From the IMG/VR virus record IMGVR_UViG_3300022208_000278, positions 1-58,515 of that record: DNA of 58,515 bases. One strand, given 5' to 3'. The position numbers were made by a program, and so were the translations under genes. Shown piece after piece: positions 1 through 40,124 of this stretch (within the stretch, counting starts at the first letter, position 1; each line of letters starts with the position of its first letter). The notes beneath the pieces are model-generated. The model had not been told where the DNA came from. It worked only from the letters and a program-made list of their open reading frames with translations, and did no database searches. The DNA comes from a virus. Lineage: Duplodnaviria; Caudoviricetes.

Positions 1-228
1 ATGACAAAGAATGAGGCAATAACAGAACACCTAAAACACTGGGAGAAATTCCCCGTTTTCGTGTGGAAAGAAGGAAACGACCTTGTGACCGAGGTTGACG
101 GAAACATACTGCGTGCAAAGACAGTATTCCAGATGGACACGAAACTAGATGGGATAGCACCAGCCCCAAGGAATTTGTATTTTGTGGACGCGCCAGATTA
201 TGAAACAGAGTGTGCAGAACGGAACTGA
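1..228 (+). CDS. hypothetical protein at distal end of array A
   Basis: 75-aa ORF ending within the first attC-like site. Confidence 0.65.
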   Translation: MTKNEAITEHLKHWEKFPVFVWKEGNDLVTEVDGNILRAKTVFQMDTKLDGIAPAPRNLYFVDAPDYETECAERN

Positions 229-297
229 GCTAACCGGACACGCCGTAGGCGTGTCCGAGTTGAGCGAGTGGTTAGCCGACAAATTTAACAACGGAGA

Positions 298-567
298 ATG
301 AACATGCGTATTTGGAAATGGGTAATTGGTATATCCGACGAATTAACTTTGATGATGCCTATCGGAGCAAAGCTGCTTGACGTTCAAATGCAAGCAGACC
401 AATGCTACATTTGGGCGCTGTGCGATCAGAACGCCGAAAAAGAACCGCGACACTTGGCGATATATGGAACCGGGAACCCGATGCCGGATGATCCTGGTGA
501 GTACGTGGCAACCTTCCAAATGCACGGTGGGGCGTTGGTATTCCATGCGTTCGAGATTGGCGGCTAA
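298..567 (+). CDS. cassette protein (small phage protein, ...IYGTGNPMP...VATFQMHGGALVFHAFE)
   Basis: RBS acGGAGa; stop TAA inside the GGCTAAC box. Confidence 0.8.
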   Translation: MNMRIWKWVIGISDELTLMMPIGAKLLDVQMQADQCYIWALCDQNAEKEPRHLAIYGTGNPMPDDPGEYVATFQMHGGALVFHAFEIGG

Positions 568-654
568 CGCCTGAGATAACCGGAGCGACGCGGCTTTATT
601 GCGGCGCGTCCGGTTGATTGACGGGTTAGGCCCGTCTTAACTACGGAGAACAAA

Positions 655-885
655 ATGGAAACACTTGAAACACTTGATGAAATGATTGATAAGCTAAAAA
701 ATTTACGCGAATCAATTGGGAGAAATTGCAATGTATTTGTGTCTGGGTGGAACGATACCGGAATAGTTCGCCCGACGAACACGGTAGCAATATTTGTTAA
801 AAGGACAGGGCTAAAAGAAGACGGTGAGATAAGCCGCGTTTGGGAAGAATCAGATGATGGTGATATAGCGGTAATCATATCGTGA
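655..885 (+). CDS. cassette hypothetical protein
   Basis: RBS acGGAGa; fills cassette 625-899. Confidence 0.75.
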   Translation: METLETLDEMIDKLKNLRESIGRNCNVFVSGWNDTGIVRPTNTVAIFVKRTGLKEDGEISRVWEESDDGDIAVIIS

Positions 886-959
886 TTGAGGGGCATAACG
901 CAGAAATAACCGGCGGCTGAAAGCCGTCCCGCTGGATTGACGGGTTAGCGAACATAAGG

Positions 960-1121
960 ATGATTGAAATGGAAGACTTAATTGGGCCACCAGAGCAAGG
1001 CGCTTTGGTCGAGATTTACGCAAAAGGAATGCGCGTAAAAATTCGCGTGAACGATTCGGAAGATGCGGAGATTGTGAGGTTGGCATTAGAGATGGCTGAA
1101 CGTCGCAGGTATGGACGCTAA
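960..1121 (+). CDS. cassette hypothetical protein, 53 aa (MIEMEDLIGPPEQGALVEIYAKG...RRRYGR), not in ORF track
   Basis: Manual translation; AAGGA upstream of the second ATG (969); TAA in CGCTAAC box. Confidence 0.65.
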   Translation: MIEMEDLIGPPEQGALVEIYAKGMRVKIRVNDSEDAEIVRLALEMAERRRYGR

Positions 1122-1159
1122 CAATTGAATTAACGCGCCGCCGCTTTTGGCGGTCGCGG

Positions 1160-1348
1160 TTGAATGAGGGGTTCGACATACAGGAAGCGTGGAGAACTGG
1201 CGAGCGGGTGAGTCTCAATCCAGGGCCACCAGACCCGGTGAAGATGGCCGTATTGATGCGGCAGCGAGATATGGGGCGGTGGGTATTTGGCGCTATGGCC
1301 GTTGGTTTTCTGGTCATGGCGATTGCGGCGGTGATTCGTGATGTCTAA
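1160..1348 (+). CDS. cassette small membrane protein (start uncertain)
   Basis: C-terminal hydrophobic helix; TAA in GTCTAAC box. Confidence 0.55.
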   Translation: MNEGFDIQEAWRTGERVSLNPGPPDPVKMAVLMRQRDMGRWVFGAMAVGFLVMAIAAVIRDV

Positions 1349-1431
1349 CGTGGAGTTAACTCGGCTGCGCATCGCGCAGTCCGGTGGAGCGAAGCGGAAC
1401 GAAAGTTGAACGTAAAGTTAGGGGTGAAACT

Positions 1432-1701
1432 ATGGAAATAAGTACACACAAAGCGGCAGAGCTTTTAAAGCTGATGACCGGAGAACTGAGACAAGATGAA
1501 TACGGAGAAACCGCATTCATGCTTGATGATGGACGCGCATTACTACTCACAACATCGGTACATATCGGGGTGCATACGTCATCGGCTCGGGTTGTATACC
1601 ATCACGTTATGGGATATATCGCGGAGGAATTCGAGCCGCTACCAAAAGCCCCTAACGTGGAGGTAAGCCGCAACCAACAGCGGCCACAAAATGACGAATA
1701 A
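1432..1701 (+). CDS. cassette hypothetical protein; C-terminus read into next attC
   Basis: ATG 15 nt after GTTAGGG; ends PNVEVSRNQQRPQNDE, encoded by the attC. Confidence 0.7.
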   Translation: MEISTHKAAELLKLMTGELRQDEYGETAFMLDDGRALLLTTSVHIGVHTSSARVVYHHVMGYIAEEFEPLPKAPNVEVSRNQQRPQNDE

Positions 1702-1990
1702 AACTACAACACAAAGCCCGCTGTTGGTTGTCGGACTTGACCGTAAAGTTAGGGGTGATGCGCAATTTGTTGAGGCCGTGAAAAAATGGAGGCTCGACAC
1801 TGGCGGAACGGAATTGCATCTCGTGCTAAATAACGGGAAGCCGCAGGCGGCATACCCGCGCAAGGTGCAAGCGGAAATATATGCGAGTGGATTTTCAAAA
1901 AACGAAGGCGTGAAAATCATTAGCGGAACTTTCACCCCTAACGTGCAAGTTCAGCGGGACGCCGCTTTTGGCGGCTCCGCTGGAACGTAG
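1691..1990 (+). CDS. cassette hypothetical protein with attC-encoded leader and tail
   Basis: ATG lies in loop of attC 1650-1754; stop lies in attC 1936-1998. Confidence 0.65.
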   Translation: MTNKTTTQSPLLVVGLDRKVRGDAQFVEAVKKWRLDTGGTELHLVLNNGKPQAAYPRKVQAEIYASGFSKNEGVKIISGTFTPNVQVQRDAAFGGSAGT

Positions 1991-2023
1991 GGTTGTGCGT
2001 CAACTTAACAACGGAGAACGAAA

Positions 2024-2263
2024 ATGAAAAAAGAATTTGGAGAAGCGCCGCTTACATGCCCAGAATGTGGCAGCCAAGAAGTTACAGTAAGCCACCTACA
2101 AAGGTTCATGGCTAACACTGGTGATCATTACTGCCACAGTGTAAAGACACAAGATGCGGACTCAGAATCGACATGTCTTGCTTGCCAATGGATTGGAAGG
2201 CGCGACCAGTTAATGACGCACAACGTAGAGCTAACCGGCGCTGCGCGCCACGAAAAGGAGTAA
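2024..2263 (+). CDS. cassette Zn-ribbon protein (CPECGS...CLAC)
   Basis: RBS acGGAGa; two CxxC motifs. Confidence 0.75.
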   Translation: MKKEFGEAPLTCPECGSQEVTVSHLQRFMANTGDHYCHSVKTQDADSESTCLACQWIGRRDQLMTHNVELTGAARHEKE

Positions 2264-2268
2264 GAGAT

Positions 2269-2577
2269 ATGAAGATCGAGAAACCACATGACTCAGCAAC
2301 GCCTACGGGCGCAGCGTCCGCGTTGAGCGCCGGGTTAGCCGTGCGGGTTGATCCTTTATACGTTTCCGTTCGCGGAAGCGAGGGGATCACCTTCAAGGAA
2401 GGCTGGAGCACTGGGAACATGACTGCGCCGGGAGTACAGATCGACACGGTTTGGTACGCAGAGCAGAGCAGAGCATTCGGCGGGTGCATTGACAGGGCCG
2501 AAGCTACGCAAATACGCGACTGGCTGAACTCGTGCATAGCCAAATGGGATCAGGAGAAGGTGAAGGCTAACGTCTGA
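2269..2577 (+). CDS. cassette hypothetical protein with attC-encoded leader
   Basis: AAGGAG-N8-ATG inside attC 2218-2340. Confidence 0.7.
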   Translation: MKIEKPHDSATPTGAASALSAGLAVRVDPLYVSVRGSEGITFKEGWSTGNMTAPGVQIDTVWYAEQSRAFGGCIDRAEATQIRDWLNSCIAKWDQEKVKANV

Positions 2578-2642
2578 CATAAGGGGCTGGCCGTAGGCCA
2601 GTCCCTCTTGGTGGAAAAGTTAGACCACATTGGAGACAGAAG

Positions 2643-2957
2643 ATGATGATAGATATTAGATGCCAGCGAGAACCGTGGAGAGACGGGATAGAGGTTGCGG
2701 TATTTCAGAAGCGAGAATTTGGAATGATGGTTGCCGAACCGTTGACGCTTAGAGAACTGAAGGACGGAGAAAACCTCAACGAGCCAACTATGCGCCTGCG
2801 GAACGAAGAGGCGCAACAATTGATAGATGAACTCTGGCGATGCGGACTGAGGCCCAGTGAAGGAACGGGCAGCGCCGGAAGTTTGGCGGCAACCGAAAAG
2901 CACTTGGCAGACATGCAGAAAATAGCGTTGGGGCTGCTTAAAGTTCATGGGGTCTAA
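2643..2957 (+). CDS. cassette phage hypothetical protein (...AQQLIDELWRCGLRPSEGTGSAGSLAATEKHLADM)
   Basis: GGAG RBS; TAA in GTCTAAC box. Confidence 0.8.
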   Translation: MMIDIRCQREPWRDGIEVAVFQKREFGMMVAEPLTLRELKDGENLNEPTMRLRNEEAQQLIDELWRCGLRPSEGTGSAGSLAATEKHLADMQKIALGLLKVHGV

Positions 2958-3002
2958 CGACAAAATTGAGCAGCCGCCCACTAAAACACTGGAGAAAACA
3001 CG

Positions 3003-3344
3003 ATGAACGATGAGACAAAACTGAATGACGAAAACCCCGCTGATGGGCGGTCTGACTCGAATGGAGGGTTAGGCGAAGTTGATTTTTATAATTATCTTCG
3101 AGAAGAAATAACTGATTTAGATAGCGCCAAAATGTTCATGTGGAAATGGGTGAACGAAATGGATCAGGAACTCCCCAAATTTGGCTCGATAAGCTCAAGA
3201 GCGCTGTGCGCCCACGTTAGCGCGATATTGGAAGGAAAGGAACAAGACGATTCAGGGGGTGATGGATATACTCAATACCTGAATACAAAGTATGGGCCTG
3301 AACTCTACTATTCAGCGTGGGGAGGGCGGCCTAACGTGATATAG
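3003..3344 (+). CDS. cassette hypothetical protein with attC-encoded leader; stop supplied by attI-like site
   Basis: GGAG + ATG inside attC 2952-3074; ends PNVI* in AACGTGATATAG. Confidence 0.7.
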   Translation: MNDETKLNDENPADGRSDSNGGLGEVDFYNYLREEITDLDSAKMFMWKWVNEMDQELPKFGSISSRALCAHVSAILEGKEQDDSGGDGYTQYLNTKYGPELYYSAWGGRPNVI

Positions 3345-3394
3345 ACACCTTTGCAGGTGTATAACACCCTGCGAAGGCAGTTTTACACCTAAAG
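3329..3394 (-). other. attI-like recombination site A
   Basis: - strand reads ...GGTGTAAAAC...GGTGTTATACACCTGCAAAGGTGTCTATATCACG|TTAGGC; near-identical copies at 6141-6206 and 40125-40190. Confidence 0.7.
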
Positions 3395-3406
3395 GAGAAA
3401 AATAAA

Positions 3407-3437
3407 TTGACAAAACATTAATTTGCTTTAACATAAT
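3407..3437 (+). promoter_or_regulatory. sigma70-like promoter upstream of Q-like gene
   Basis: TTGACA 3407-3412; TAACAT (16-nt spacer) or CATAAT. Confidence 0.45.
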
Positions 3438-3455
3438 GACCCACAACGAAGCGGA

Positions 3456-3989
3456 TTGGTTGGATACAATTTAAAAGATGGGGACGAATTGCGAATATCA
3501 ATTAAATCTTATTCACAGGCAGTAAACTCGTCGAATTTAATTGATAATACAATTAAGCAAGATACGGCGATATTGGCCGCTGTAGCTCTATCATCAGAGC
3601 TTGGGTCAATGCTATTCCGGGCTAAATATGCTGGAGACGAGCACAGCGTCATGATGCTCATGGATGCGTGGCGAATAAAAGTCTCTGCGGTGGCAAAAAA
3701 ACGCAGATTTTTGGAAAAGGCAAATGAGGTTGCTGATACGTCCTTGCGATATTGGCTGCAAGGCGTATGCCGAGTATGTGATGGTCGAACTGCACCGAAA
3801 ATTGATAACACACCAATGCTGGCCGATCTTGTGTGCCCAGCGTGCGGTGGGAGCGGGCAAGCCAGATTAAAGTGCGATGAGAGCATAAAAGATCATGTTC
3901 GTGATGCAATCGAAACGCTAAACCAAATGGAACGCGAGGCAGGCGGCGCAGCGATCAGGAAATTGTCGGATGATGTGCGTGCGGTATAA
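3456..3989 (+). CDS. antitermination protein Q-like (Zn finger CRVCDG...CPACGGSG); start may be TTG 3489
   Basis: Size and paired CxxCxG motifs typical of lambdoid Q antiterminators. Confidence 0.6.
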   Translation: MVGYNLKDGDELRISIKSYSQAVNSSNLIDNTIKQDTAILAAVALSSELGSMLFRAKYAGDEHSVMMLMDAWRIKVSAVAKKRRFLEKANEVADTSLRYWLQGVCRVCDGRTAPKIDNTPMLADLVCPACGGSGQARLKCDESIKDHVRDAIETLNQMEREAGGAAIRKLSDDVRAV

Positions 3990-3998
3990 ATTTACAAA

Positions 3999-4085
3999 GG
4001 AAGATGCCGCTAGGTTGGCTGGCAAGCGGTTTTGAAAACCGTGGTGTCCGAAAGGGTAAGGGTTCGACTCCTTCATCTTCCGCCA
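3999..4085 (+). tRNA. tRNA-Ser (anticodon TGA)
   Basis: Acceptor GGAAGAT/ATCTTCC, discriminator G + CCA, anticodon arm GCGGT-TTTGAAA-ACCGT, long variable arm, GGTTCGACTCC T-arm. Confidence 0.9.
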
Positions 4086-4126
4086 TTATTACCATTATTA
4101 AACGCCACAGGCAGCTTGACCGTAAA

Positions 4127-4265
4127 GTTAGGGGTGAAAGTGGTGGGGATTATTAAAGCGCATCCAAGCGCAAGTGTTCCGGGAGGCATACCGGGTAGTG
4201 CAGGCCGTTCGACACGGCGGCACGGCATGTTGGATATAGTAGTCCTCACCACTTTCGCCACTAAC
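4127..4265. ncRNA. ORF-less cassette, candidate structured RNA
   Basis: 23-bp terminal inverted complement (3 mismatches); internal GCCG-TTCGACA-CGGC T-loop-like hairpin; no RBS/ATG-led ORF filling the cassette. Confidence 0.35.
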
Positions 4266-4326
4266 GTAGAGCTAACCGGCAGGCCGCTTGGATGCCGTGT
4301 TAGGCACGACCAAACAGGAGAACGAA

Positions 4327-4635
4327 ATGAAATTGCTGGACATGGTTTCCGCTCTATCAAAAGCAGGTGTTGCTACAACAGTGCGCGGTGTAGGGGAAAC
4401 ATTGATAGCCGAGTTTGAGGATGGGTTTTATAAATCAGACGGAATGGCGCACCTACGCGAAGAAAACGGGCGACTGTATCTAAACGCCAGATATGGCGAG
4501 AAGAAAGAGGTTTTAGGGATTGATGACGTTATCAAATGCTCTAAAGAATGGCACGAATTCAGCCACGATAGATTCGATGGATGGGAAACACCGCCAGCAC
4601 ATTGGGCCGCGCTGTATGAGACGTTGAGTGCCTAA
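4327..4635 (+). CDS. cassette hypothetical protein
   Basis: AGGAG RBS; TAA in GCCTAAC box. Confidence 0.8.
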   Translation: MKLLDMVSALSKAGVATTVRGVGETLIAEFEDGFYKSDGMAHLREENGRLYLNARYGEKKEVLGIDDVIKCSKEWHEFSHDRFDGWETPPAHWAALYETLSA

Positions 4636-4658
4636 CGTGGAATTAAGCGGGCGCGAAA

Positions 4659-4868
4659 ATGACCTCTGATAAAACCAGCCACGCTGAACGCGCTCCGCTT
4701 GAATGTAGGGTTATGCCTCTGCCACTTGGAACGCAAACCCAATGGGGAAAAATTGAAATGGTCGGCATCACTGGAGGCGAACGGTACTACTGGATGCTCG
4801 ACAAACATAAATGCGTGTCCATGATTCCTGCCTTCATGGTAGAACAGGGGCATAACGACAAAGCTTAG
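4659..4868 (+). CDS. cassette hypothetical protein with attC-encoded leader
   Basis: ATG within attC 4630-4716. Confidence 0.65.
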   Translation: MTSDKTSHAERAPLECRVMPLPLGTQTQWGKIEMVGITGGERYYWMLDKHKCVSMIPAFMVEQGHNDKA

Positions 4869-4938
4869 GGGCGACGCCGTAGGCGGCGTCCCACTAGAGC
4901 GGCGGGTTGTGCGCCGCCGTTCAACGGAGATAAACACG

Positions 4939-5226
4939 ATGAAGCGATACCGAACACCGAAGGCGAAACCCGGCGAACTGCTGGTGAAGTACGGGCAGGA
5001 ACATGGAGACCGTGACCTGTACTTTTGCTACGGGGCTGGCGGGGCAACAAGACGAGATTCAAATGTCGTGATGATGGCTTTCAATAGCGAACTGAAACTT
5101 GGGAATGGGAATTCACTCGTTAAAGAACTAGAGGCTCGTGGATACGACATCACAACGCTGAAATTCACGGTGCAATTGAAGGCGCACAACGTGAAGCTAA
5201 GAGACAGGCCGACCGAAAAACTTTAA
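4939..5226 (+). CDS. cassette phage hypothetical protein (...SLVKELEARGYDITTLKFTV)
   Basis: acGGAGa RBS; reads into next attC. Confidence 0.75.
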   Translation: MKRYRTPKAKPGELLVKYGQEHGDRDLYFCYGAGGATRRDSNVVMMAFNSELKLGNGNSLVKELEARGYDITTLKFTVQLKAHNVKLRDRPTEKL

Positions 5227-5240
5227 AGGAGAAATGAACC

Positions 5241-5498
5241 ATGAACACACGCAACTTTGGAAAGAAATCACTTATCGGCCTGTCCCTCTTGAGCGTAGGG
5301 TTAGTGGGTTGCGAACTTGCATCACCGTGGCAAGGTGCAGGTGCTCTTTACATTTACGATCATGGTGTTTCGCGTTGTGTAAATGTTAAAGAGGTAGCTT
5401 TCAATGCGTCTCGATCTACAGATTATATTGATCTTGATGGTATCCAATATTTGGCGCGTGAACCTGTGGCATATTACGCTGGTGAGAAATGCAAATGA
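5241..5498 (+). CDS. cassette lipoprotein; signal peptide encoded by attC
   Basis: MNTRNFGKK-SLIGLSLLSVG-LVGC lipobox; residues 1-22 lie in attC 5184-5306. Confidence 0.65.
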   Translation: MNTRNFGKKSLIGLSLLSVGLVGCELASPWQGAGALYIYDHGVSRCVNVKEVAFNASRSTDYIDLDGIQYLAREPVAYYAGEKCK

Positions 5499-5553
5499 AT
5501 ACCCCTAACGGGGAGCTAAGGGGCTGCGCGCATCACGAAACTTTGAAGGAGCG

Positions 5554-5901
5554 ATGAGCATGGAATCAGCGAACGAAACTGGAAAGAACCCCGCTGGCGC
5601 GCAGTCCGGTGGAGCCGAAGGCGGAACGAACTTGAGCGGATGGTTAGCCGCCGAGAAGCAGCAGGAAGCGGAATGGGACAATTTTTGGCGCGAGCGCGAA
5701 CTAGAAGAACGAGAGCTTTTTGAGCAGAGCTACCGCCGCCACAAACTGAACCGGCATCATGGCGGAACAGGAGAATATGAGCATCGCTACGTCGAGCATT
5801 GTTGGCATGGCTGGATGGATAGGGCATTCGTGATCTACACAGAGGCGGCTAACGTGCAAGTTCAGCGGGACGCCGCTTTTGGCGGCTCCGCTGGAACGTA
5901 G
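5554..5901 (+). CDS. cassette hypothetical protein with attC leader and tail
   Basis: AAGGAG + ATG inside attC 5503-5649; tail identical to that of 1691-1990. Confidence 0.7.
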   Translation: MSMESANETGKNPAGAQSGGAEGGTNLSGWLAAEKQQEAEWDNFWRERELEERELFEQSYRRHKLNRHHGGTGEYEHRYVEHCWHGWMDRAFVIYTEAANVQVQRDAAFGGSAGT

Positions 5902-5934
5902 GGTTGTGCGTCAATCAAACTATGGAGAATAAAA

Positions 5935-6156
5935 ATGTGCGTAATAGTCATGGTCGGAGATATTGAGTGTAGTACAAAAGCAGAACTGAGAAATGCTATC
6001 GGAATTGAACCGGAGCGCAGAAAGAAAGATTACAAAACATTTGAGGACGGAGATTGTCTTTGTCCATGCGATCTTGAGAAAACAGCAAAGCTCGCAAATA
6101 TGACTTTGAGCGGCGATTCTTGGGATGTGCAGATTTTGACGCACAACGTGATATAG
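5935..6156 (+). CDS. cassette hypothetical protein (DCLCPCD)
   Basis: GGAG RBS; ends HNVI* in attI-like site. Confidence 0.75.
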   Translation: MCVIVMVGDIECSTKAELRNAIGIEPERRKKDYKTFEDGDCLCPCDLEKTAKLANMTLSGDSWDVQILTHNVI

Positions 6157-6206
6157 GCACATTTGCAGGTGTATAACACCCAACGAAGGCAGTTTTACAC
6201 CTAAAG
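6141..6206 (-). other. attI-like recombination site B
   Basis: AACGTGATATAGGCACATTTGCAGGTGTATAACACCC...TTTTACACCTAAAG, near-identical to sites A and C. Confidence 0.7.
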
Positions 6207-8977: not shown

Positions 8978-11299
8978 CTATAATTTATTAAATAGCGCGG
9001 ATGCCATCAGTGATGGGGGCACCTCAGCCTGCGAATACTCTTGGATGTAATGCCAACTAGTTTGATTAGACTGAGAGTATGGGACTAGATATATTCTGTT
9101 CTGCGTTGGAGAGTAAACACCACCACGATACCCGTTCGTAACTACAGTTGCTCCGTGAGTGTAAGCTACGACTGTGCCAGTTGCGCAATCAATGTAGTGC
9201 CAACTCGTTTGATTAGACTGTGCTAATGGGACTAGATATATTCTGTTCTGTGTTGGAGAGTAAACACCACCAATATACCCGTTCGTAACTACAGTTGCTC
9301 CGTGGGTATAAGCTACGACTGTGCCAGTTGCGCAATCAATGTAGTGCCAACTCGTTTGATTAGACTGTGCTAATGGGACTAGATATATTCTGTTCTGAAT
9401 CGGGGAATAAACACCACCATAATACCCGGTCGCAACTACAGTTGCTCCGTGAGTGTAAGCTACGACTGTGCCAGTTGCGCAATCAATGTAGTGCCAACTC
9501 GTTTGATTAGACTGAGAGTATGGGACTAGATATATTCTGTTCTGCGTTGGAGAGTAAACACCACCATAATACCCGGACGCAATTACAGTTGCTCCGTGGG
9601 TATAAGCTACGACTGTGCCAGTTGCGCAATCAATGTAGTGCCAACTCGTTTGATTAGACTGAGAGTATGGGACTAGATATATTCTGTTCTGTGTTGGAGA
9701 GTAAACACCACCAGCATACCCGGTCGCAACTACAGTTGCTCCGTGAGTGTAAGCTACGACTGTGCCAGTTGCGCAATCAATGTAGTGCCAACTCGTCTGG
9801 TTAGACTGAAAGTATGGGACTAGATATATTCTGTTCTGTGTCGGGGAATAAACACCACCAGCATACCCGGACGTAATTACAGTTGCTCCGTGGGTATAAG
9901 CTACGACTGTGCCAGTTGTGCAATCAATGTAGTGCCAACTCGTCTGGTTAGACTGTGCTAATGGGACTAGATATATTCTGTTCTGTGTTGGAGAGTAAAC
10001 ACCACCAATATACCCGTTCGCAACTACAGTTGCTCCGTTCAAATACGAGCCTACGCCGAATCCTATATTTATATTTTTCGAGTGTATCCGTGATAGGTAT
10101 GAGACAAGGTTGGGTATACTTATCGTATCCATCCTGACGGACGGGAATGGCGCGGTTAGTATGTTTGTTGCGCTGGTGAGCGTTTTATTGGTTAGCGCCT
10201 CGGCTCCCGTGGGAGTTGTTAGGTCAGTCCCCAGCGTGAGTTCGGCAGCCATACCACCCGCATCAAACCCTGCGACCTTAAGCGCTGTTCCGGTATGCCC
10301 AGAGCCAGACCATGCCAGATCGGTCAAGTTGGGGTGGCTTGTCGGTGCCAAGGCGGTAGGTGCGGAGCTTCCGATAACAGGGCGCAAATCGGAGATGGTC
10401 GAGGGCGAAGTAGCGCCATTCAAGAATGTGATTTTTGCAATCACCATCCCGTGTTCCATGTATTCCTCTGGACGATTTGTCGGGGTGGCTTCAGCCAGCG
10501 CTTCGGCTTCCGTTGCGTATTGAGCGCGTCCGTATTGAACTACGACATCCCCCAAGTAACCCTGTATCACGTAATGATTGCTGTACCACCCAACGGTCGT
10601 TGCTGTGAGCACGCCAGCATTGTCGTATTGGGTATTGTCCCATTGAGTTTGAGCGGCTACATAGGTGTATGTGCCTGTCCCATAAATAGCTGTGAACGTG
10701 CCACCAGCGTTGGAATCGAACAGGCTTATATGTTCCTGATCCATGCTTCTGGACACTTCAATCGTCCCAGCGGTTATGGCTATTTTCCTCGATGGTGCTG
10801 ATGGGTCATAAGTCACCAGCCCCGCAGAAACTCTATCCCCGATTGTTCTCTGCGCCCATCCCTGCGCACGATTTACAAAGTCTCCGATTGGCCGTGCATC
10901 CGGGTGAATCTTGAGCACCCCTCCCCGGTTGTGAACCTCTCCCAAATAGATCAGGTCGTACCCGTTCGAGGTGTCTGTCGGGTTGAATGCGATGTTCGGT
11001 GCGCCAGAATTCCAACTCCCTATCAAGTACCTTGTGGTGTCAGTAGGAATCGCCACGCCAGTCAATCCGGCGACAGTATTCTCGTAGTAAATCGAGGATG
11101 TTGCCGTAGATCCTGAGCGTATGATGAATTCTCCAACAGCGACGTTTACCGTCGCGCCGCCAGCATCGGTAATCCCGAAGCCCTCGATCCAGCCTGACGA
11201 GCTTAAATCTTTCCACAGGCTGCGCAGGGTCGCGGTGGTTCCGGTTGAGTGGACTAGCAGCGTGCCATCAGACCGACCTCCATCTCTCCATGCTGACAT
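8978..11299 (-). CDS. tail fibre / receptor-binding protein with 7x49-aa repeat domain
   Basis: Gly/Thr-rich beta structure, LTNKTL fibre motif, C-terminal tandem repeats. Confidence 0.7.
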   Translation of the reverse strand: MSAWRDGGRSDGTLLVHSTGTTATLRSLWKDLSSSGWIEGFGITDAGGATVNVAVGEFIIRSGSTATSSIYYENTVAGLTGVAIPTDTTRYLIGSWNSGAPNIAFNPTDTSNGYDLIYLGEVHNRGGVLKIHPDARPIGDFVNRAQGWAQRTIGDRVSAGLVTYDPSAPSRKIAITAGTIEVSRSMDQEHISLFDSNAGGTFTAIYGTGTYTYVAAQTQWDNTQYDNAGVLTATTVGWYSNHYVIQGYLGDVVVQYGRAQYATEAEALAEATPTNRPEEYMEHGMVIAKITFLNGATSPSTISDLRPVIGSSAPTALAPTSHPNLTDLAWSGSGHTGTALKVAGFDAGGMAAELTLGTDLTTPTGAEALTNKTLTSATNILTAPFPSVRMDTISIPNLVSYLSRIHSKNINIGFGVGSYLNGATVVANGYIGGVYSPTQNRIYLVPLAQSNQTSWHYIDCTTGTVVAYTHGATVITSGYAGGVYSPTQNRIYLVPYFQSNQTSWHYIDCATGTVVAYTHGATVVATGYAGGVYSPTQNRIYLVPYSQSNQTSWHYIDCATGTVVAYTHGATVIASGYYGGVYSPTQNRIYLVPYSQSNQTSWHYIDCATGTVVAYTHGATVVATGYYGGVYSPIQNRIYLVPLAQSNQTSWHYIDCATGTVVAYTHGATVVTNGYIGGVYSPTQNRIYLVPLAQSNQTSWHYIDCATGTVVAYTHGATVVTNGYRGGVYSPTQNRIYLVPYSQSNQTSWHYIQEYSQAEVPPSLMASALFNKL
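9044..10036 (-). repeat. 7 tandem 147-bp coding repeats
   Basis: GATV...GGVYSPTQNRIYLVP..QSNQTSWHYIDC.TGTVVAYTH, period 147 bp. Confidence 0.95.
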
Positions 11300-11936: not shown

Positions 11937-14900
11937 TCACGGGTTTTTTGAGTATCTTGCCATTGCTTTTTCGTATCTGGTCGCCAGTTGGTTTGATAGC
12001 GCAATTTGCCGATCCTCAGCCAGTTTTATCTTTGCTTTACTGCCTTCTGCACGTGCATCTTCTTCTGCTTTGCGTAGGTTCTTCATGCGCTTTTGCCAGA
12101 AGATAATGCTAGTCCCTCCTAGAACCCTACTTTGTTTTACGCCATCTTCACCGGATTTTTTCTTAACCTCGCTCAATTGGTCATAGAACCTGCCGCGATA
12201 CTCCTCAACGTCCTTTGTCGAGATAATCTTTCTGACAAATGGGGTGTGTTCAACATCGGGAAATTCTCCTGACACGGCCTCTTTCCCTGTGGCGTATAGG
12301 TTTGATGCGAACGTTCCAGTTCCGCCAGTCAAGAATCCAGCCATCATCTTCAGTGTCTCTGGTGATACATCAGCCCAAGCCAACACTGCGCTATTCGCAG
12401 CCTTATCGTAGAGTGTTCCGCGAGTGCTTCGATACATTGTTTCACGGTCAGGCTTCCCATCATCATCCGAGAAGTGCGGCACAAGTTTACCCCCAAACGA
12501 ATTCGCGTTGACCGATGACATCATCAGCGGCTTTAGCATAGTCGGGGATACGTTCACAGCAAACTTTTCTTGCGATACCTCGCCTTTATCTACGGGAGAA
12601 CCTATGGGTGTAAAGTGCTCCATGAATTGCCCTAGGGTATTTACAGCAGCCTTCATCGGGCTTATGCGGCCTTTCATCATATTTCCAGCCGTATATCCCG
12701 CTCCGAAGAAGAATCCAAGACCATAAGCCAGAATCATCTTCACTGTGTATTCGCCAAAATGCAGGTTCAGGTTATGCTCTTTGTCGTACTCACTGGTCAA
12801 TTCGTCGTCGTCGTCGCCGGTCATCATCGCCGCAAATACACCTAATGCGAATAATCCTCCGATGATAGCTTTTACCTGAGTTTTATGTTTCGTTCCGGTA
12901 GCAGCACGGAACAGGTTTTGAGTTCCTTGCACGTTCGCATTCCAGAACAGATAAGCAGCATTCCACGCTTTCGACTGTTCGCCTTTGCGATTGAAGTTGA
13001 CGGTGACATTCTTGGCTATACGAGAGGCTTCCGCCAGCACCTTCGGCGTTACTTTATCCACCCCACCGTTAGCGTCAATAAACGAGCGGAAAGCTGCCAT
13101 ACGATAAGCATTCTCTGCCGCATGGTTTAGATTCTCGATCAGCATCATCAGGCGGCTATCCAGCATTCTGTACAAGACTACCTTTCCGGCTCCAGACACG
13201 GCCTTGCCAGAACGATCTAAGATCGTGCCCTTGTGAGACAAACCCTGTTTCCATGCTCGAACGACTCCACCTCCACCGTGCCGAGCAAGCATTGAGTCAA
13301 GTTTAAGTTGCTGCGTCTCTATATCGTCCAGCATGGCAAAGGCGGTCAATGCTCCACTGTTCCTTGCGAGGTCGTAATACTTCTGCCATACGCCCATAGA
13401 CTTATCGCGGGATTGTGCAAACATCGCCTTGGCTGCGCTGGGTACATGGCTCATTGCCTTTGCAGCATACTTCGCCCCACCTTCCCCAGTTAGTACCGCA
13501 AATGCAGTTTGTGCATCACGGAACAGGTTGGTGATGATGAACTCTGGATTTTTCTGCGTATACATCTGGCGCAGGAACATATTCAGATTGGCAGATGCTT
13601 CAAGTATTCCGCCAAGTTGCGATGCGTTCAAGTTGTTATAAGCCGCCGCCATGATTGGGTCGTGGAGTTGAATGCGGAACTCTTTACCGTTCTTGATGTA
13701 CCTAACTTCCTTGGTGTTATCGAAGCCAATATCTCGCATTATGATGGTAGGCTCGCCGCCAACTTTGTTGATCTTGATGTCGCCTTCTTTGTCGTTAACA
13801 TTTCGCTTGGACTCGACAAATCGGCGCGCATCATTCAGGTTGTCAAACCGTTCAACAATAGACCCGTAATATTCGACTTCGTATCTCTGCGGAGTCTTAC
13901 CCTTTACCGGCGTTTTTTCTGGCTCTTCAATCGTCCACAATGTAGAGTCTGGGTTATCTTCCACAAGGTTACGCAGCGTCTCGCCTACGTTCGCTTTTTC
14001 TTTCAAGAATATGGCGGCGTGGTAGTCCCTGAATATATTCTCGACCACCTGACCCGCACGGCTTACCCGACCAAGAGCCTGACGCGATGCGCGCTTACTG
14101 GTTGAATACCCTCCACCGATTCCATTACCTACCTTATTCCCTGAGTCATCAATAACCTCAAAACCTTTGTATGGGACATAAAAACCCATAGCGTCACGCG
14201 CTTGCTGGGCTTGGTCGGCAGTCATTACGTTACCCTCAACAAGCAAGTCCAGCTTCGATTCGGTTACTTTTTGGATGTCTCTTGCCAGCGAATCAAACTT
14301 TTCAAAGTCAGGGCGCTTGCGGTAATCATCAATTATCTCTTGCGCTTCAAGATTGGTTATGCCCGATCCGTTGTTCGGCATGTCGTCGCGCAATGTCTGG
14401 ATATAGGCATTACGATCTTTCGCGCCCAAGGCCATCAAGTATGTGCCGATTTCCTCTGTTGTAGTTTTGAGTTCGGCTACGCGCTTCATAAACGGCTCGA
14501 CAACTTTATCCGTGAACTTTTCTTGCTGCAAAGCAACTCGGTCTGTCATGCGCTCCATAGCCTGATAGACGTTGCTTTGCTCGTCCACGATACCCCCCTG
14601 TTCTTGGATGGCATCCTGAATGACTTTTATGCGATTGAGATTGTCCTGCTGTTTGCGCTGGAGTTCCTGCAAAGATGTTTCTTGCGGGATGTTGAAGCGT
14701 TTTGGCGACTCATTATTTACAGGTGGCGCGGACTTTGAGAGCATCACACCGCCAGACTTGGAATACATTACGCCTTTTAATCCGGGTGGTAACTCGCCAT
14801 CGAAAAGCGATAGTGTCTCATCGCTTCCTCTTCTGGAATCTGATTTATCTTTAAGTGATTGTGCGAGTCCCGCTCGTACAACGCTGGCAATACCGAAAGG

Positions 14901-17900
14901 ACTCCTTTTAGCCATGTCCGGCTCAATACCGAGTCGCTTTGCTCTTGCGAATCCGCGATCCATTGCCTGATTAACGAGCTTGGTTCCCATGTCGGATTTG
15001 ATACTAACTCTGCCGTTCTCCGAGCGTAGGCGCAGTCCGTCCTGATCGGGAAGGTCGATCTCCAATTCTCCGGTAGTAAAGTTGTAGTGGACATTATTAA
15101 CCTCTGGTACAAATAATGAGATATTATCTTGCGCCGACTTAATCAAATTGTCAATGTTTTGCGCATCATTATCACCCCACTTTACAGGGGAATACTCTTC
15201 TAAAAAATAATCATTATGACCTAATTTTCCTTTGTAAAGATTAGGATACTTCTGCTCATTAGATGGCTCCATGAAGTCAGTCCTACCTCCATGACGGATA
15301 GCCGCCGATAACATTAATTCAGTTCTGCGTATCATTGCGATGTCAGTAACCCCGTATGGGTCTCCGATTAACCTTACCCCTTTGTTCTTTGCGGCATAGT
15401 CAAGTACGCCAGTATAAAGTGCAGCACCACCCGATGAGCCAGATTTAAAGTTAGATACGTTTAGCCATACGCGGCCATCATCAGCTTCGTATATAAATGC
15501 TGGATTGTCATCAAATCCTGAAACAACTTCCCAAGCCTTAACTACGCCATCTTTTTTAGCCATTTCTTCAGGGACTTCTATTTCTTTGATTTTACTTTTT
15601 GCAGAAACAGATTTTCCGTCCTCGTCTTCGCCATTCATGGCTGACAGTACATTCCCTTCAATACTTGTTTCGTTGTTCTTTTTGAATTTAAACAGATTGT
15701 CATGTACGGATAATTTCTTCCAAACTTGCTGGATAAGTGATGATGTATATTCTTGCTTACTAAATGACTGAGTATCACCCTCTACATTAACATCGCCGCG
15801 AGCTGCTTGAGCCATCCCTGCCTTGGCAAGTGCGATAATATCGTCAACGCTTAATTTGACCGCTACGCCACGCTTGAACAGTGCAGCCCTTACCTTGGCT
15901 ACCCAATTACGCACAAACTCGCTTACGCGCTTTCCTAGCTTGTCTGTGAGGTGTGCAAATAGAGTGTTGTCTATGGCGCTGAATCCGTCTTGGCGACCAA
16001 GTAATAAAGCCTGTTCAACGATGTAGGATGCAGATTCCATTTCCATTTCATCACCTACCACCCCAGCGCTTTCCATCCGCGCATAAACAGATTGCAGGAA
16101 CTCGCGTAGTTTCTTCGGGACGAGCTTGCTATCCCTCAAGGCAAGCAAGTCCATTGCCTGCTTGCGCATTTCCTTGGTATCGGTAGCATGTACTGTTTCA
16201 TGCAATGCAACAGGGGCGGCAGTCTCTTTGGTCAAATTATTGGCGACCATGAATGTCAGGCCGCTACGTGGATCGTAGAGAGCTTGGACTTTCCCGGATT
16301 TGCTGTAGCGGATGTCTGGATTATTTGGGCTAAATGTGCCACGATTTCCTATGGCTGATTTGATCTGGCTTGGCTCGAAGGCAACCCATACTTTTTGAGG
16401 ATTACGGTTTTCATCAAGCTCTGAAATAATCGCCCCATCATATCCCATCTTTTTTAATATTTCGACAAGATGATCTCCTCCATATTCTTCATCAAACAAC
16501 TCCCATAACTCATGCTGCCCATTAGTGAGCATTCTTGAGTTATACCCGTTTGCATCAAGGGTATTAAGGAAAGCATCGCGCAGGTTTGTTAAATCTGCCG
16601 GGTCTGATATTTGAAGAAATACATCCATCTTCTTGCCGCCAAACTCTGACGCAAAAGAGGCATTTTCAGCAAAGAATAATCCATATCTCTTTGCATCGTA
16701 ACTACCGAATATCGTAGCATTCTTTGTCGGTCTGCCCACCTCAAAAGAATTGAACTCGTTTTTCGTATTGTGATAAACAACCAGCGGATTACCATCAGCA
16801 TCCACCACCTTGCTATCGCCAAACCATTTCTTAAACGCTGGCGTGTCGGTCTGATTACCGGCGACCGATTGCAACACATCCTCGCCCAACTCCACCCCTG
16901 TCTTTTCCTTGAACAGTTCCGGCAGGCTTTCAATATCCTTGGCAATGACAATTCCACCCTTCTTTCCTTCGTCGCCGCGCTTCAAGAGGATGTCGGCGTA
17001 CTTTGAGGTGTTGGGATTGTCGCGCAAAGATTGGGCGATTGTCGCTGGGGTTTCGGAGGTTGTGGAGTTGGTGGTGCGGCTAAACATTAAGTCCGCATCT
17101 GTGGATAGTTGTTTGATTTTTGCCTTGCGATCCACCTCATCGCCATGCTTGTACTTAATGACGTTTTGGATTCCGCGCTTTTCGAGCGCATCCAATGCTT
17201 TCTGGCTAATATCGTCAGGCACAACAGCGCCCTTGAACTCGCTTAAATCCACGGCGCGGAGAATCTTTGCCTCGAAATATTCAGTTGGCAGGCTTCGTAA
17301 CTTGTCAAGAAACTCAGCGGCATCTTTCAGTTTTTCTTGTGGCGCATCTTCAAATCCGTTTTCACGGAATGCGCGAGGCAGTCCCATCGTGGCAGCGTCG
17401 TAGAGAGTAGACGACATGGTATCTCCAAATCCGATCTTGTTTCCTATCGGGTGGTATGCACCAAACTCTTCCGCGAGCGCAAAAAATTCTTTATCTATCT
17501 CGTCCTTCACCTTCTCAAACGCGGCTTTGTCCATCAGCCTATTTTTGGCATCCTGAATTTGCTTAATGCTTTTGAATTGTGGCGCGAACTTAGAGCGGAT
17601 CGTTCCTACGCCATAATTAAAGCTCTCTCCACCACGCAATTCTTTCTTGAGTAGCTTGATTACATTATCCAGTGTATGCGGGATGTACTTACGGTTTCCA
17701 CTTTTTGTATAGCCTTGGAATATGCGCTCATTCGCGCCAATATCATTGAAAAATTCTTTTGCGTACCCCTCCATTTCATTGCGCAAACCTGCATCGGATA
17801 TTTGTTTTTCAAGCGCATATCTTGTTTTTGTTTTATCTATGTCACCTTCGGATGCGCGATTCATAATGTGATGGTTAATCTCTTGCGCAATGCTATTCAC

Positions 17901-37696: not shown

Positions 37697-39004
37697 TTAC
37701 ACGCATTCTGGGTACAATTCAGACTCCGATGGAGTCCTGCGCGGGGTTGTGTGTGCAACAGCCATCAATCCTATTGCATCTGCGCCGTGGCTAGACCAAT
37801 CGTGGTTTGGCCCAAGCCCCACGTTTCTCACCTCATCGCGCTTCTCGTGATACCAGCCCAGCGCGTCTAGCCCAGCAGAGCATCTTCCCTCATCAAACCA
37901 CATAGAGGAAAATAGCCTGCGTGTCTCTTCAATCCTCGCCTTTGCAGCACCCTTACCTTGGTTTGGCACCACTGTAACCGTGTAACCTGCCTGTCTTAGC
38001 GCACTCTCATATGAGACATCATGAACCTTATCTTGCGTAGCCCCGTCGTGCGGGAGCCATATTTGAGCCTTGCTTGGACTGTACCCACGCTCTCTCATCC
38101 ACGTCACATGTGCTGATAGGGGCTGCCCTACCGACTCGTAGTAGTCGATCACCCTTATCTCAGTACCAATGAACTGTGCCGCCCACATCGCAAATGCATC
38201 AGCTCTCGCCCCTGTCCCGCCAATATCGCAGAACAGGCGTATGGTCATCAATGGATCAGGCTCCACCTTTCCTATCCTGCGGTCTTTTCTGGCTTCCAGT
38301 AGGTGTCTGGCGTAGTAAGCGCCCTCAACAACACTCACATACGCACCTTCCCAGATGTAATCGTACTGGTCTGGGCGCTCTCTAATGTCTCTCTGCCGGT
38401 CACGCTCCAGCTTGTCAGGGAACTTCGGATTGTCTCTCCAGTTAAGCTCAACCAGCTTGTATCTGGTGTCCTTTGAGTGCCTGAATCTCGATTCTACCGC
38501 AGCAGTCTTGCGCTTCGGGTTCCACGTTACCCACAATTCAGCGTTCCAACCAACCCCCTCTTCGCGTAGGGTAGGGATCAGAACCGTCCACGCCTCATCA
38601 GTAACCGGCTCGGCTTCGTCCACCCAGCCAACCAAAATTCGACCTTTTGACTTGATAGAGCCAATATTCCTATCCAAACCGGCGAATACAAACACTATCC
38701 GACCATCTCTGGATTTGATGTACTTGTCGCCAATATCGTAATAATCAGCGAGGAATGGCTCTTCCTCTATGGCTCTCTTGCACTCCTCTAAGGAACTATC
38801 CTCAAGCGAGTTCATGAACTGGCGTGCGCAAAGCAGTATTCCGCTCTCTCCAGCATTCCCGAACATATAGCCACGCACAGCCATCATCTTGGCGAAGCTG
38901 CGGGTCTTGCCTGATCCGCGACCACCCCACGCGCCCCTTACATCAGCCTCCCCAGCAAATACCGGGATTAGCTTGTTCGGTAATTTAATCTGTACGGCTG
39001 TCAT
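37697..39004 (-). CDS. terL: terminase large subunit (PBSX family)
   Basis: Walker A GGRGSGKT, Walker B WVDEAE, nuclease HDWSSHGADA. Confidence 0.95.
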   Translation of the reverse strand: MTAVQIKLPNKLIPVFAGEADVRGAWGGRGSGKTRSFAKMMAVRGYMFGNAGESGILLCARQFMNSLEDSSLEECKRAIEEEPFLADYYDIGDKYIKSRDGRIVFVFAGLDRNIGSIKSKGRILVGWVDEAEPVTDEAWTVLIPTLREEGVGWNAELWVTWNPKRKTAAVESRFRHSKDTRYKLVELNWRDNPKFPDKLERDRQRDIRERPDQYDYIWEGAYVSVVEGAYYARHLLEARKDRRIGKVEPDPLMTIRLFCDIGGTGARADAFAMWAAQFIGTEIRVIDYYESVGQPLSAHVTWMRERGYSPSKAQIWLPHDGATQDKVHDVSYESALRQAGYTVTVVPNQGKGAAKARIEETRRLFSSMWFDEGRCSAGLDALGWYHEKRDEVRNVGLGPNHDWSSHGADAIGLMAVAHTTPRRTPSESELYPECV

Positions 39005-39904: not shown

Positions 39905-39919
39905 CTTTGGATTTGTTGG

Positions 39920-39948
39920 AAAAAAAATACCCGCACTAGGCGGGGTAA
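39920..39948 (-). terminator. terminator just downstream of late promoter (tR'-like)
   Basis: TACCCCGC...GCGGGTA + T7 on - strand. Confidence 0.6.
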
Positions 39949-40083
39949 TTGGCTGAGTGAACCGCCGGGAGGACTACATGAATCTGTGTTACGCGAATTG
40001 CGGAGACGGCTTCACACCAAATGACTCGTGAGTTTGCCGCAATATTCTCCTCACGCTGTGCGGTACTACTGTTACTTTACGCG

Positions 40084-40112: not shown

Positions 40113-40124
40113 TTTATTTTTCTC

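Follow-up and report, generated by a model that had tools for sequence, protein, structure and literature searches.

Integrons are regarded as bacterial devices whose orientation ensures expression: each attC site lies behind its ORF, antisense ORFs are exceptional, and the attC bottom strand is the one folded and cut by integron integrases. The phage record IMGVR_UViG_3300022208_000278 (58,515 nt, 77% complete), analyzed here over its whole length as the window, carries ~40 integron-type attC hairpins in six arrays that make up roughly one-fifth of the record, and an initial annotation of the sequence described all of the cassette ORFs as antisense to their attC. The locus thus raises the question of whether these hairpins are genuine attC sites, whether their polarity is truly mirrored, and by what route cassettes of such a design could move.

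Sites were located with two covariance models, R1, in the gene sense of the window and derived partly from its own sites, and R2, built solely from bacterial attC in gene orientation (seven Rhodocyclaceae and three class 1 sites). R1 yields 39 attC in the window at E < 0.05, and the six clusters, of 2–13 sites each, conform to CALINs (at least two nearby attC, intI absent). Array 1 (214–3394, + strand), delineated by R1 matches, R2 matches on the opposite strand and codon usage, comprises ten sites on the gene strand (+; 214–277, 562–631, 893–950, 1116–1177, 1343–1423, 1650–1754, 1936–1998, 2218–2353, 2565–2625 and 2952–3074) with small + strand ORFs between them, and is closed by a conserved 62-nt terminal element (3333–3394, +). 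The short-type site 1936–1998 (R1, 51.1 bits on +; R2, 42.8 bits on −) is composed, in what is here the bottom-strand reading, of CCCTAAC, a 6-nt spacer, a 7-nt arm, a loop, an 8-nt arm with a bulged G, a 5-nt spacer and GTTGTGC. Its + strand reads CCCTAAC-GTGCAA-GTTCAGC...GCTGGAAC-GTAGG-GTTGTGC, and the − strand string quoted in the initial annotation is the reverse complement of it. A 79-aa cassette ORF (2024–2263, +) begins 26 nt past this site. Within the long-type site 2218–2353 (+, an R1 match) lie the RBS, the start codon (ATG, 2269) and ~24 leading codons of the next cassette ORF (2269–2577, +, 102 aa), whose N terminus is thus encoded by the site. Beyond a second short-type site (2565–2625, +; R1, 51.1 bits on +; R2, 42.2 bits on −), a 104-aa ORF (2643–2957, +) takes as its stop the TAA in the first box of the long-type site 2952–3074 (+; R1, 37 bits; long-type alignment), which in turn contains the start of the last ORF of the array (3003–3344, +, 113 aa, supported by codon usage). 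The terminal element starts right behind the AAC of the last box, bears three ACACC repeats, has a promoter-like TTGACA sequence behind it, and occupies the position expected of attI.

Outside the arrays lie a 177-aa inter-array ORF (3456–3989, +), for which a family search gave zero matches above the cut-off, and, between arrays 1 and 2, a tRNA-Ser gene (anticodon TGA; 3999–4085, +). Array 2 (4259–6206, +), supported by R1 and R2 matches, codon usage and folding, has sites at 4259–4305 (weak), 4630–4716, 4850–4912, 5185–5306, ~5504–5657 (recognized by eye and fold only) and 5847–5909 (all +), ORFs at 4327–4635, 4659–4868, 4939–5226, 5241–5498, 5560–5901 and 5935–6156 (+), and its own terminal element (6145–6206, +). 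Array 3 (40125–44176, −; R1 and R2 matches, codon usage) is the largest, with 13 sites on the gene strand (−; 40396–40457, 40666–40729, 41079–41142, 41285–41409, 41584–41657, 41881–41938, 42119–42202, 42385–42507, 42743–42798, 43201–43268, 43483–43605, 43808–43930 and 44086–44176) and a terminal element at ~40125–40190 (−). Array 4 (46911–47315, −; R1 matches) consists of two sites (46911–46967 and 47211–47315), the stop codon of a DNA methyltransferase gene (47310–48329, −) falling inside the first box of the latter. Four sites (51323–51386, 51649–51704, 51995–52098 and 52242–52363) form array 5 (51323–52363, −; R1, R2 and codon usage), and six (54062–54140, 54654–54745, 54988–55052, 55215–55273, 55503–55567 and 56116–56218) form array 6 (54062–56218, +; R1 and R2 matches, codon usage).

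The repeats are genuine integron attC, of a sequence type shared with class 1 and Rhodocyclaceae cassette sites. The pattern TAACG..GTTRNRY occurs 22 times in the window against 4.9 expected, a count reached in none of 100 shuffles, and a strand-symmetric scan returns 23 candidates compared with 0–7 per shuffle (20 shuffles). Across 135 distinct related sites, in an alignment that had been fitted to the model, 86.9% of cells are paired (66.1% in shuffles) and compensatory changes are present at 12 of the 13 inner-helix pairs. The AAC/GTT pairs of the outer inverted repeat (R''/R') are retained in 132–134 of these sites and are invariant in alignment A2. In the inner helix, a G and a T are bulged, both on the gene strand's 3' arm, and the spacers measure 6 and 5 nt. 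R2, which represents attC of real integrons, recognizes the window's sites with a best score of 50.6 bits. Folded as single-stranded DNA, the + and − strands of 1936–1998 give similar energies (−16.9 kcal/mol, z −3.1, and −15.6 kcal/mol, z −2.9, respectively), so that folding energy cannot separate the strands.

Strand is assigned instead by the asymmetry of the sites and by the models, and both confirm the mirrored polarity. The one-base inner-helix bulge occupies the 5' arm of the gene (top) strand in 40 of the 43 reference-integron candidates; in the window, the 16 array candidates with a bulge all carry it on the gene strand's 3' arm, a reversal that bears out the asymmetry read from the sequence initially. 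R1 places 39/39 matches on the gene strand across the six arrays, scoring 50–68 bits there and 7–16 bits for the same sites on the other strand, and none of the 39 follows the canonical layout, in which attC comes behind a gene encoded on its top strand. Comparing covariance-model hits with ORF strand, as the initial annotation had proposed, gives the same answer from the bacterial side: all 24 R2 matches in the window (E < 0.02) are on the strand opposite the ORFs. The reciprocal search agrees, with R1 matching 4/4 class 1 attC of locus L004 on + (41–52 bits), opposite aac(6')-Ib, blaIMP, blaOXA-1 and catB3 (annotated on −), and falling on the bottom strand in 14 of 15 matches over the reference integrons as a whole. 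As controls, a Rhodocyclaceae array with the same attC type (L247; 11 sites on −, ORFs on +, DUF2625 at 270 bits) and the published array of phage TJE1 both show normal polarity.

Such a pattern could also arise if polarity were normal and the genes miscalled, the true genes being long − frames such as 2112–2543 and 2550–2981. The opposite strand does contain open frames of 100–155 codons, yet in codon usage these score −0.13 to −0.42, resembling non-coding frames, and they have neither RBS-preceded starts nor Pfam matches. Of 55 sense frames, 40 score above 0, against just 1 of 64 antisense frames; within 1–6200, the 16 + ORFs range from −0.005 to +0.255 and the 15 − ORFs make up the negative range given above. 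The methyltransferase, NinG and DnaB genes, moreover, lie on the same strand as the sites, as does the conserved ORF 4327–4635, which has four homologues with 58–86% identity. Four lines of evidence, from codon usage, RBS, annotated neighbors and protein homologues, establish on which strand the cassette genes lie, and the miscalling explanation is left with a negligible likelihood.

About one-quarter of the sites enclose the RBS, the ATG and approximately the first 24 codons of the downstream gene. In a long-type subclass of ~122–125 nt, the RBS, ATG and ~24 codons occupy the loop and 3' arm, and long-type sites align with a fixed ATGAA. Another explanation is that the hairpins are former attC that have lost recombination and are kept as RNA or transcription signals, acting for instance in attenuation, processing or translation initiation, with a polarity that mirrors just what works in mRNA. 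A site stands at every gene junction, the upstream stop codon is provided by the site in 13 of 39 cases, the downstream start, where one was called (31 sites), lies inside the site in 10, and RBS and ATG are conserved in the long type, all as signals would require; the lack of an integrase in the phages and of clean joints in the run contigs points the same way. Against this, the AAC/GTT triplets, the two bulges on one arm and the 5–6-nt spacers are kept with compensatory changes; these are features that matter to integrase recognition and are useless to an RNA signal. Cassettes also vary among related contigs with breaks precisely in TAAC, and a purely signaling role is unlikely.

These breaks also give indirect evidence on how the mirrored cassettes may move. 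In related viral contigs, found by patterns from one site subfamily, shared cassettes begin and end within the TAAC box, as anticipated. Between contigs L183 and L194, similarity changes over within the first box, inside its TAAC, and it is the downstream ORF that keeps the hairpin. Among 24 shared blocks (BLAST ends, several comparing one cassette, and representing six independent cassettes), nine begin at the first box, eight finish at the next one, and none passes a downstream site to stop behind it, bar three with alike neighboring sites. Site strand is uniform within each array of the other viral contigs, and when the longest RBS-preceded ORF is taken from each interval separating neighboring sites, 187 share the strand of the sites and 14 are on the opposite one, by a crude heuristic that gave 5 versus 5 on the bacterial control L247. 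With model hits opposite the ORFs and breakpoints in the TAAC box, the two points on which the inverted-cassette interpretation could have failed both came out favorably, and it is supported.

The initial proposal of a crossover between AA and C, with the hairpin traveling with the downstream gene, accounts for the breaks in TAAC but leaves gene-only and site-only sharing unexplained. Gene-only sharing is seen in 5 of the 24 blocks; the L182 and L183 copies of gene Z, for example, match at 93% identity and have different upstream sites. Conversely, the long-type site, here 2218–2340, and its 24 codons are common to L183 and L194, where the protein bodies are unrelated, and site 43201–43268 has 98.5% identity to a site of L197 between unrelated flanks. 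Events beyond a single crossover of this kind are therefore needed. The identical pair offered in further support of this crossover holds as described, with identity from CTAAC to GTCAA (1938–2003 and 5849–5914, the short-type site 5847–5909 on + being the same as 1936–1998 from CTAAC on) and differing upstream flanks, but is weak as independent support. Its downstream sequence is merely loosely alike (family D2, 92% over 89 nt), and because neither flanking ORF is common to the two copies, the pair shows only conserved site modules, as in chromosomal integrons. No clean site-to-site joint was found among the contigs of the one public run containing the window.

The enzyme has to be sought outside the phage. 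A PF00589 search of the 77% complete window gave no match, and a tyrosine recombinase was found in none of the five array-bearing phage records examined (four of them ≥93% complete), so the enzyme must come from the host. No array in the window is adjoined by the intI and attI of a complete integron. Downstream of two phage arrays, on two related contigs, lies a truncated intI on the same strand, in normal geometry relative to attC. In both bacterial genomes with this attC type, an encoded integron integrase scores past the curated cut-off (499.5 and 407 bits); one of the two, Rhodanobacter, also has a prophage whose array follows the phage design. Recombination by a system specific to the phages, with a non-IntI enzyme and an attC likeness reflecting convergence or old borrowing, would fit the absence of IntI from the phages, and the exchanges of sites alone and of genes alone suggest that events of different kinds occur. 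It is opposed by scores of 41–52 bits against real class 1 attC and of up to 50.6 bits with the bacteria-only model, by the intI remnants at two array ends and by the IntI of the bacterial genomes sharing the attC type; we consider such a system unlikely.

Class 1 cassettes (plasmid NZ_CP114762) and the Rhodocyclaceae MAG array L247 have the same site architecture and sequence type as the window, with the AAC/GTT box pair, a 5–6-nt unpaired spacer, a variable loop, and an inner helix with bulged G and T on one arm; the models cross-match both ways, and geometry relative to the intI remnant, where present, is the same. Bacterial arrays, however, have the gene on the top strand with attC behind it, whereas the phage arrays have the gene on the bottom strand with attC in front, and some sites of the window, unlike those of bacterial arrays, contain the RBS, ATG and first codons. 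Sedentary chromosomal integrons do hold inverted cassettes, mostly toxin-antitoxin, with the gene on the attC bottom strand, but these form a minority within arrays of normal orientation and bring promoters of their own; in the window, the inversion affects every cassette of every array. PeSL promoter/stem-loop cassettes of T4-type phage plastic regions, thought to shuffle genes by homologous recombination, likewise set small phage accessory genes between repeated stem-loops that are not attC-like. Qi et al. 2023 (PMC9892861) report CALINs in phages, 17 among 10,705 genomes, with phage attC bottom strands recombined by IntI1; the CALINs shown there have ~2–4 sites and are termed typical arrays. 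Like the window, they have attC and no integron integrase; unlike them, the window has at least 39 sites in six arrays over about one-fifth of the record, all mirrored.

The explanation that we favor, with a probability of about 0.72, is that these are mirrored attC cassettes of a phage without an integrase, acted on by a host IntI in trans. In this phage lineage the cassette is built reversed, with the gene on the attC bottom strand. In gene sense, a cassette would consist of C, hairpin, RBS/ATG, gene and a closing ...TAA, with crossover between AA and C of the first box, and the hairpin would belong to the downstream gene as its head, not to the upstream gene as its tail. A host integron integrase may shift cassettes between phages of this kind, and phage promoters would drive the arrays toward the end that corresponds to attI/intI in integrons. 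That IntI is the acting enzyme, and that the mirrored design brings any advantage, we infer.

A broader reading, which we put forward tentatively and as doubtful in its entirety, is that of a widespread uncultured phage lineage with about one-fifth of its genome in mirrored cassettes, which draws on a phage-only pool, uses host IntI in trans and shuffles faster. On this reading, attC would come first and the gene second, with one attC subclass giving the RBS, ATG and ~24-codon leader; the hosts would probably be Xanthomonadales- or Rhodocyclales-like bacteria with IntI; and phage cassettes would be silent in bacterial integrons, as bacterial cassettes would be in phage. The recombinogenic strand would be the non-template strand and, with genes co-oriented with replication, the lagging-strand template, and phage arrays would consequently shuffle much faster than bacterial ones. 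For comparison, Loot et al. 2017 (PMC5371416) report bottom-strand recombination ~1000-fold above that of the top strand, a preference by which cassettes are inserted correctly oriented downstream of the Pc promoter.

Tools that search for attC assign such arrays a "wrong" gene orientation, and cassette proteins may be missed or miscalled. The reversed order and strand of the sites point to exchangeable phage genes forming a pool of their own. If true, phage arrays would be free of the link among replication direction, transcription and cassette stability seen in bacterial ones; a second, differently wired phage gene pool would use the same recombination sites, and this would partly account for the shuffling of small accessory genes among phage genomes.

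The six arrays of attC-like sites in the window lie at 214-3394, 4259-6206 and 54062-56218 on the + strand and at 40125-44176, 46911-47315 and 51323-52363 on the - strand. Pattern matches number 22 against 4.9 expected, and structural candidates number 23 against 0-7 across 20 shuffles. A covariance model (R1), built in the gene's sense from 11 short window sites and 19 sites of related viral contigs and run with filters off, recovers 39 window sites at E<0.05, grouped in six clusters. Every one of these 39 sites lies on the strand of the local genes, and the same sites score 50-68 bits on the gene strand versus 7-16 bits on the opposite strand. Across 135 distinct sites from other contigs, in an alignment that was fitted to the model and whose figures therefore lean towards it, 86.9% of cells pair versus 66.1% in shuffles, two-sided changes occur in 12 of 13 inner-helix pairs, and there is almost no variation in the AAC/GTT triplets. 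The sequence first quoted for the site at 1936-1998 agrees with the window. A 24-nt string, TTGACCGTAAAGTTAGGGGTGAAA, resembling a site's 3' arm, spacer and last box, occurs three times in the window (within 4100-4139 (+), 1406-1429 and 1737-1760); the copy at 4116-4139 stands alone, half-site-like, just behind a tRNA-Ser gene (3999-4085).

Because the opposite strand carries open frames of 100-155 codons, the coding strand of the arrays was checked independently. Five held-out replication genes score +0.07 to +0.22 under a codon-usage log-odds measure whose training set was 12 long structural genes. Within 1-6200, 16 + strand ORFs score -0.005 to +0.255 and 15 - strand ORFs -0.13 to -0.42; across the array regions as a whole, values above zero occur in 40 of 55 sense frames versus 1 of 64 antisense frames. 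Other assemblies contain four full-length homologues (58-86% identity) of the ORF at 4327-4635, and the methyltransferase gene ends within the first box of site 47211-47315. Pfam assigns no family to eight + strand cassette proteins of 1936-6156 or to two - strand frames, and PHROGs returns for the cassette proteins of this region two weak matches only, to families of unknown function. The cassette protein of 54160-54624 (+) carries a crAss001_48-related domain (PF21825, 67.9 bits) and is the sole scanned cassette product above the Pfam cut-off. Stop-free frame coverage was dropped as a strand test, carrying no information in GC-rich relatives.

The polarity of these sites was compared with that of reference integrons oriented by intI and annotated genes: a Vibrio phage with a piece of chromosomal integron (L001), a Shewanella prophage (L002), a Vibrio chromid (L003), a class 1 array carrying aac(6')-Ib, blaIMP-45, blaOXA-1 and catB3 (L004), and a class 2 array (L005). 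In a strand-symmetric scan, 40 of 43 reference candidates have the one-base inner-helix bulge on the 5' arm of the gene (top) strand, compared with the 3' arm of the gene strand in all 16 array candidates of the window that show one. In L004, R1 detects the four class 1 attC sites on the + strand with scores of 41-52 bits, with the resistance genes on the - strand; 14 of its 15 reference matches fall on the bottom strand. A second model, R2, was built from 10 bacterial sites oriented like their own genes (seven from a Rhodocyclaceae array and three class 1), with no window site among them, and yields 24 matches in the window at E<0.02, every one opposite the gene strand. The initial annotation had placed the canonical attC top strand opposite the ORFs, and R1, R2 and the bulge-side scan all bear this out. 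Folding energies do not separate the two strands; the asymmetry of the sites resides in their bulges and spacers. An earlier reference alignment of 37 Vibrio, Shewanella and class 1/2 sites, in which MAFFT misplaced the short class 1 sites, was almost structureless in RNAalifold and gave no model, and a 15-row bacterial alignment with five long sites out of register was dropped for the 10 short rows.

Mirrored arrays extend beyond the window. Two pattern scans over viral contigs yielded 80 loci, with 111 and 141 R1 sites in the two scans, the figure of 111 taking in chance-level pattern matches of ~22 bits. In the related viral contigs, site strand is uniform within each array. For the longest ORF preceded by a ribosome-binding site between consecutive sites, 187 intervals have it on the site strand and 14 on the opposite one, a count that leaves out ties, takes 31 and 2 intervals from the window and includes the near-duplicate contigs L220 and L231. 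The same count gives 0/3 in the class 1 control and an uninformative 5/5 in the Rhodocyclaceae control. The site search pattern also brought up two bacterial contigs. The Rhodocyclaceae MAG L247 has 11 sites on the - strand and the intervening ORFs, one matching DUF2625 at 270 bits and another DUF3592, on the + strand, so that the same attC type appears there in normal polarity, unlike the phage arrays. In the Rhodanobacter lindaniclasticus contig L246, three sites come after an Erf / RecE-like / SSB module and share its strand, as part of a prophage with the mirrored phage design. The CALIN of Tetrasphaera phage TJE1, the one array of Qi et al. 2023 (PMC9892861) checked here, has normal polarity, unlike the window: its three weak R1 matches (18.9, 14.5 and 10.8 bits) lie on the - strand behind + strand orf1-3.

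Shared cassettes reveal where the exchanged units begin and end. Two viral contigs, L183 and L194, have two cassettes (genes X and Y) in common in different contexts. As far as GCCTAAC, the X/Y junction of L183 agrees with the X end in L194; immediately past this string it agrees with gene Y of L194 and the site before it rather than with the site behind X in that contig. For the two X copies identity sets in at TAAC, and for the two Y copies it stops just past TAACG. A table of 24 BLAST blocks between different contigs (at least 150 nt, at least 80% identity, the near-duplicate pair L220/L231 set aside) extends this comparison. Nine block starts, representing six independent cassettes, lie within 10 nt of the first box ahead of the gene, five at 4-64 nt behind a site, three in the 3' part of a site and seven away from sites. 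Eight blocks end at the following site's first box and four at 20-26 nt into that site; only three pass through a downstream site, and there both contigs have similar neighbouring sites. The usual shared unit is therefore the hairpin together with its downstream gene, between two TAAC boxes. The proposal that the breakpoint is the AAC box, with the hairpin travelling with the downstream gene, is supported among the relatives.

Several shared sites follow another pattern. The copies at 1938-2003 and 5849-5914, offered earlier as independent support for an AA|C crossover, are indeed identical from CTAAC through GTCAA with different upstream flanks, but they have neither neighbouring gene in common and so show only the site as a module. 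The site at 2218-2340, including the ~24 codons it encodes, is common to the window, L183 and L194, with three unrelated protein bodies, and site 43201-43268 is 98.5% identical to a site of viral contig L197 between unrelated flanks. In chromosomal integrons, conserved sites beside unrelated genes are normal, so all that these examples establish is that a site forms a separate module. Between L182 and L183, gene Z is 93% identical over 625 nt and stands behind different sites, which shows that site replacement is possible. A single AA|C crossover does not fit gene Z, 2218-2340, 43201-43268 or the identical pair; sites may be replaced through top-strand events of low frequency, through homologous exchange from one site to another or through the process that makes cassettes.

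Contigs of one public run (X1), which contains the window and may be its origin, gave seven candidate joints between distant sites over 39000-58515, with a short side of 20-31 letters in six and 50 in one. None of the seven links two first boxes, and they are read as repeats or other phages. Summed contig depth in this run reaches 2-4x the base level in several attC-bearing bins, e.g. 54624-55274; raised depth and joints probably come from other phages with similar sites in the same sample.

The hairpin also forms the head of the gene behind it. The first-box TAA doubles as the upstream ORF's stop codon in 13 of 39 window sites; behind short sites the following start comes after 12-30 nt, and 10 of the 31 window sites with a called start contain the start codon. 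Long sites form a subclass of ~122-125 nt with an A-rich loop, a ribosome-binding site and a fixed ATGAA ~50 nt from the first box, the reading frame continuing along the 3' arm and across the GTT box. If the crossover fell at this GTT box, such genes would be severed from their own start codons. The long-type sites 5185-5306 (+) and 43483-43605 (-) have almost the same loops. The ORF starting at 5241 reads MNTRNFGKKSLIGLSLLSVGLVGC, resembling a lipoprotein signal peptide that includes a lipobox; the hairpin's 3' arm encodes part of it.

Three arrays are closed by a conserved 62-nt element with three ACACC repeats (3333-3394 (+), 6145-6206 (+) and ~40125-40190 (-)), which begins directly after the AAC of the last box, the place of attI in an integron. 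It could be an attI-like site or a regulator-binding region. Two copies share the promoter-like stretch AAAGGAGAAAAATAAATTGACA behind them; two lie just upstream of a TTGACA promoter, one of these preceding a leader with a terminator and late genes; and relatives hold no counterpart of the element. A regulatory role is at least as likely as an attI-like one. The ORFs 3456-3989 and 39485-39895, each behind one copy, are unrelated. Behind the third copy, 39920-40120 (-) holds a TTGACA/TAGACT promoter-like pair, a ~190-nt leader and a GC hairpin with a T run, directly preceding the small and large terminase genes, a layout that recalls a late promoter and a terminator passed by antitermination.

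The window spans an entire IMG/VR virus record (58,515 bases) that is classified as a provirus and estimated to be 77% complete. Its PHROG matches (large terminase, head-tail adaptor, DnaB-like helicase, DNA methyltransferase and NinG/Rap endonuclease) all lie on the - strand, and an Rfam scan found no family at gathering score. The structural region contains a single 3221-aa ORF (11937-21602 (-)). Within a 773-aa ORF (8978-11299 (-)), six small overlapping frames at an exact 147-nt spacing (9066-9923) point to tandem 49-residue repeats in the predicted protein. Megablast found no close relative among named phages, and a distant search returned 17 records, 16 matching only the tRNA region and one, Burkholderia phage CSP3, over 107 nt; the 177-aa ORF (3456-3989) retrieved no relatives. 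The terminase query gave 326 relatives, of which the 80 kept share only the terminase at the DNA level and have 0.08 sites per kb, equal to background, versus 0.39 per kb in the window. Of 124 DnaB relatives, the 80 kept have no cassettes in common with the window, and the seven closest have no R1 matches.

The tyrosine-recombinase family PF00589 has no match anywhere in the window, and five phage records with arrays, of which four reach at least 93% completeness, likewise have no tyrosine recombinase. Two viral contigs carry a truncated intI that retains the N-terminal SAM-like domain PF13495 alone (L234:6777-6956 (-) and L213:2026-2250 (-)) just downstream of the array on the same strand, as does a Rhodocyclaceae MAG (L251:1501-1725 (-)) downstream of its attC array. 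Such ORFs could be no more than leftovers, or could serve some function themselves; by eye, the L234 stump is followed by a tRNA-like sequence. The stump-to-attC geometry is normal, the same as in L004 and beside intI of both bacterial genomes, whose integron integrases score 499.5 and 407 bits, above the curated cut-off. From the phages without a recombinase, the intI stumps in normal geometry and the bacterial IntI, we infer that a host IntI acts in trans on the phage sites.

Phage CALINs and their use by IntI1 are already known (Qi et al. 2023, PMC9892861); the mirrored polarity of the phage arrays would be the new part. The parts of the main text of that study consulted hold no mention of inverted polarity, and a literature search, mostly at title and abstract level, found no description of phage arrays with it; the full list of 17 phage CALINs in the supplement of Qi et al. 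could bear on novelty. In the portions of Loot et al. 2017 (PMC5371416) consulted, the attC bottom strand recombines ~1000x more often than the top strand and folds more readily when carried by the lagging-strand template, and large chromosomal arrays retain it in the leading-strand template. When the gene occupies the bottom strand, the recombining strand would be the non-template strand of transcription, and where genes are co-oriented with replication it would be the lagging-strand template. Given this placement, phage arrays could be much more dynamic, and cassettes crossing between phage arrays and bacterial integrons would end up antisense.
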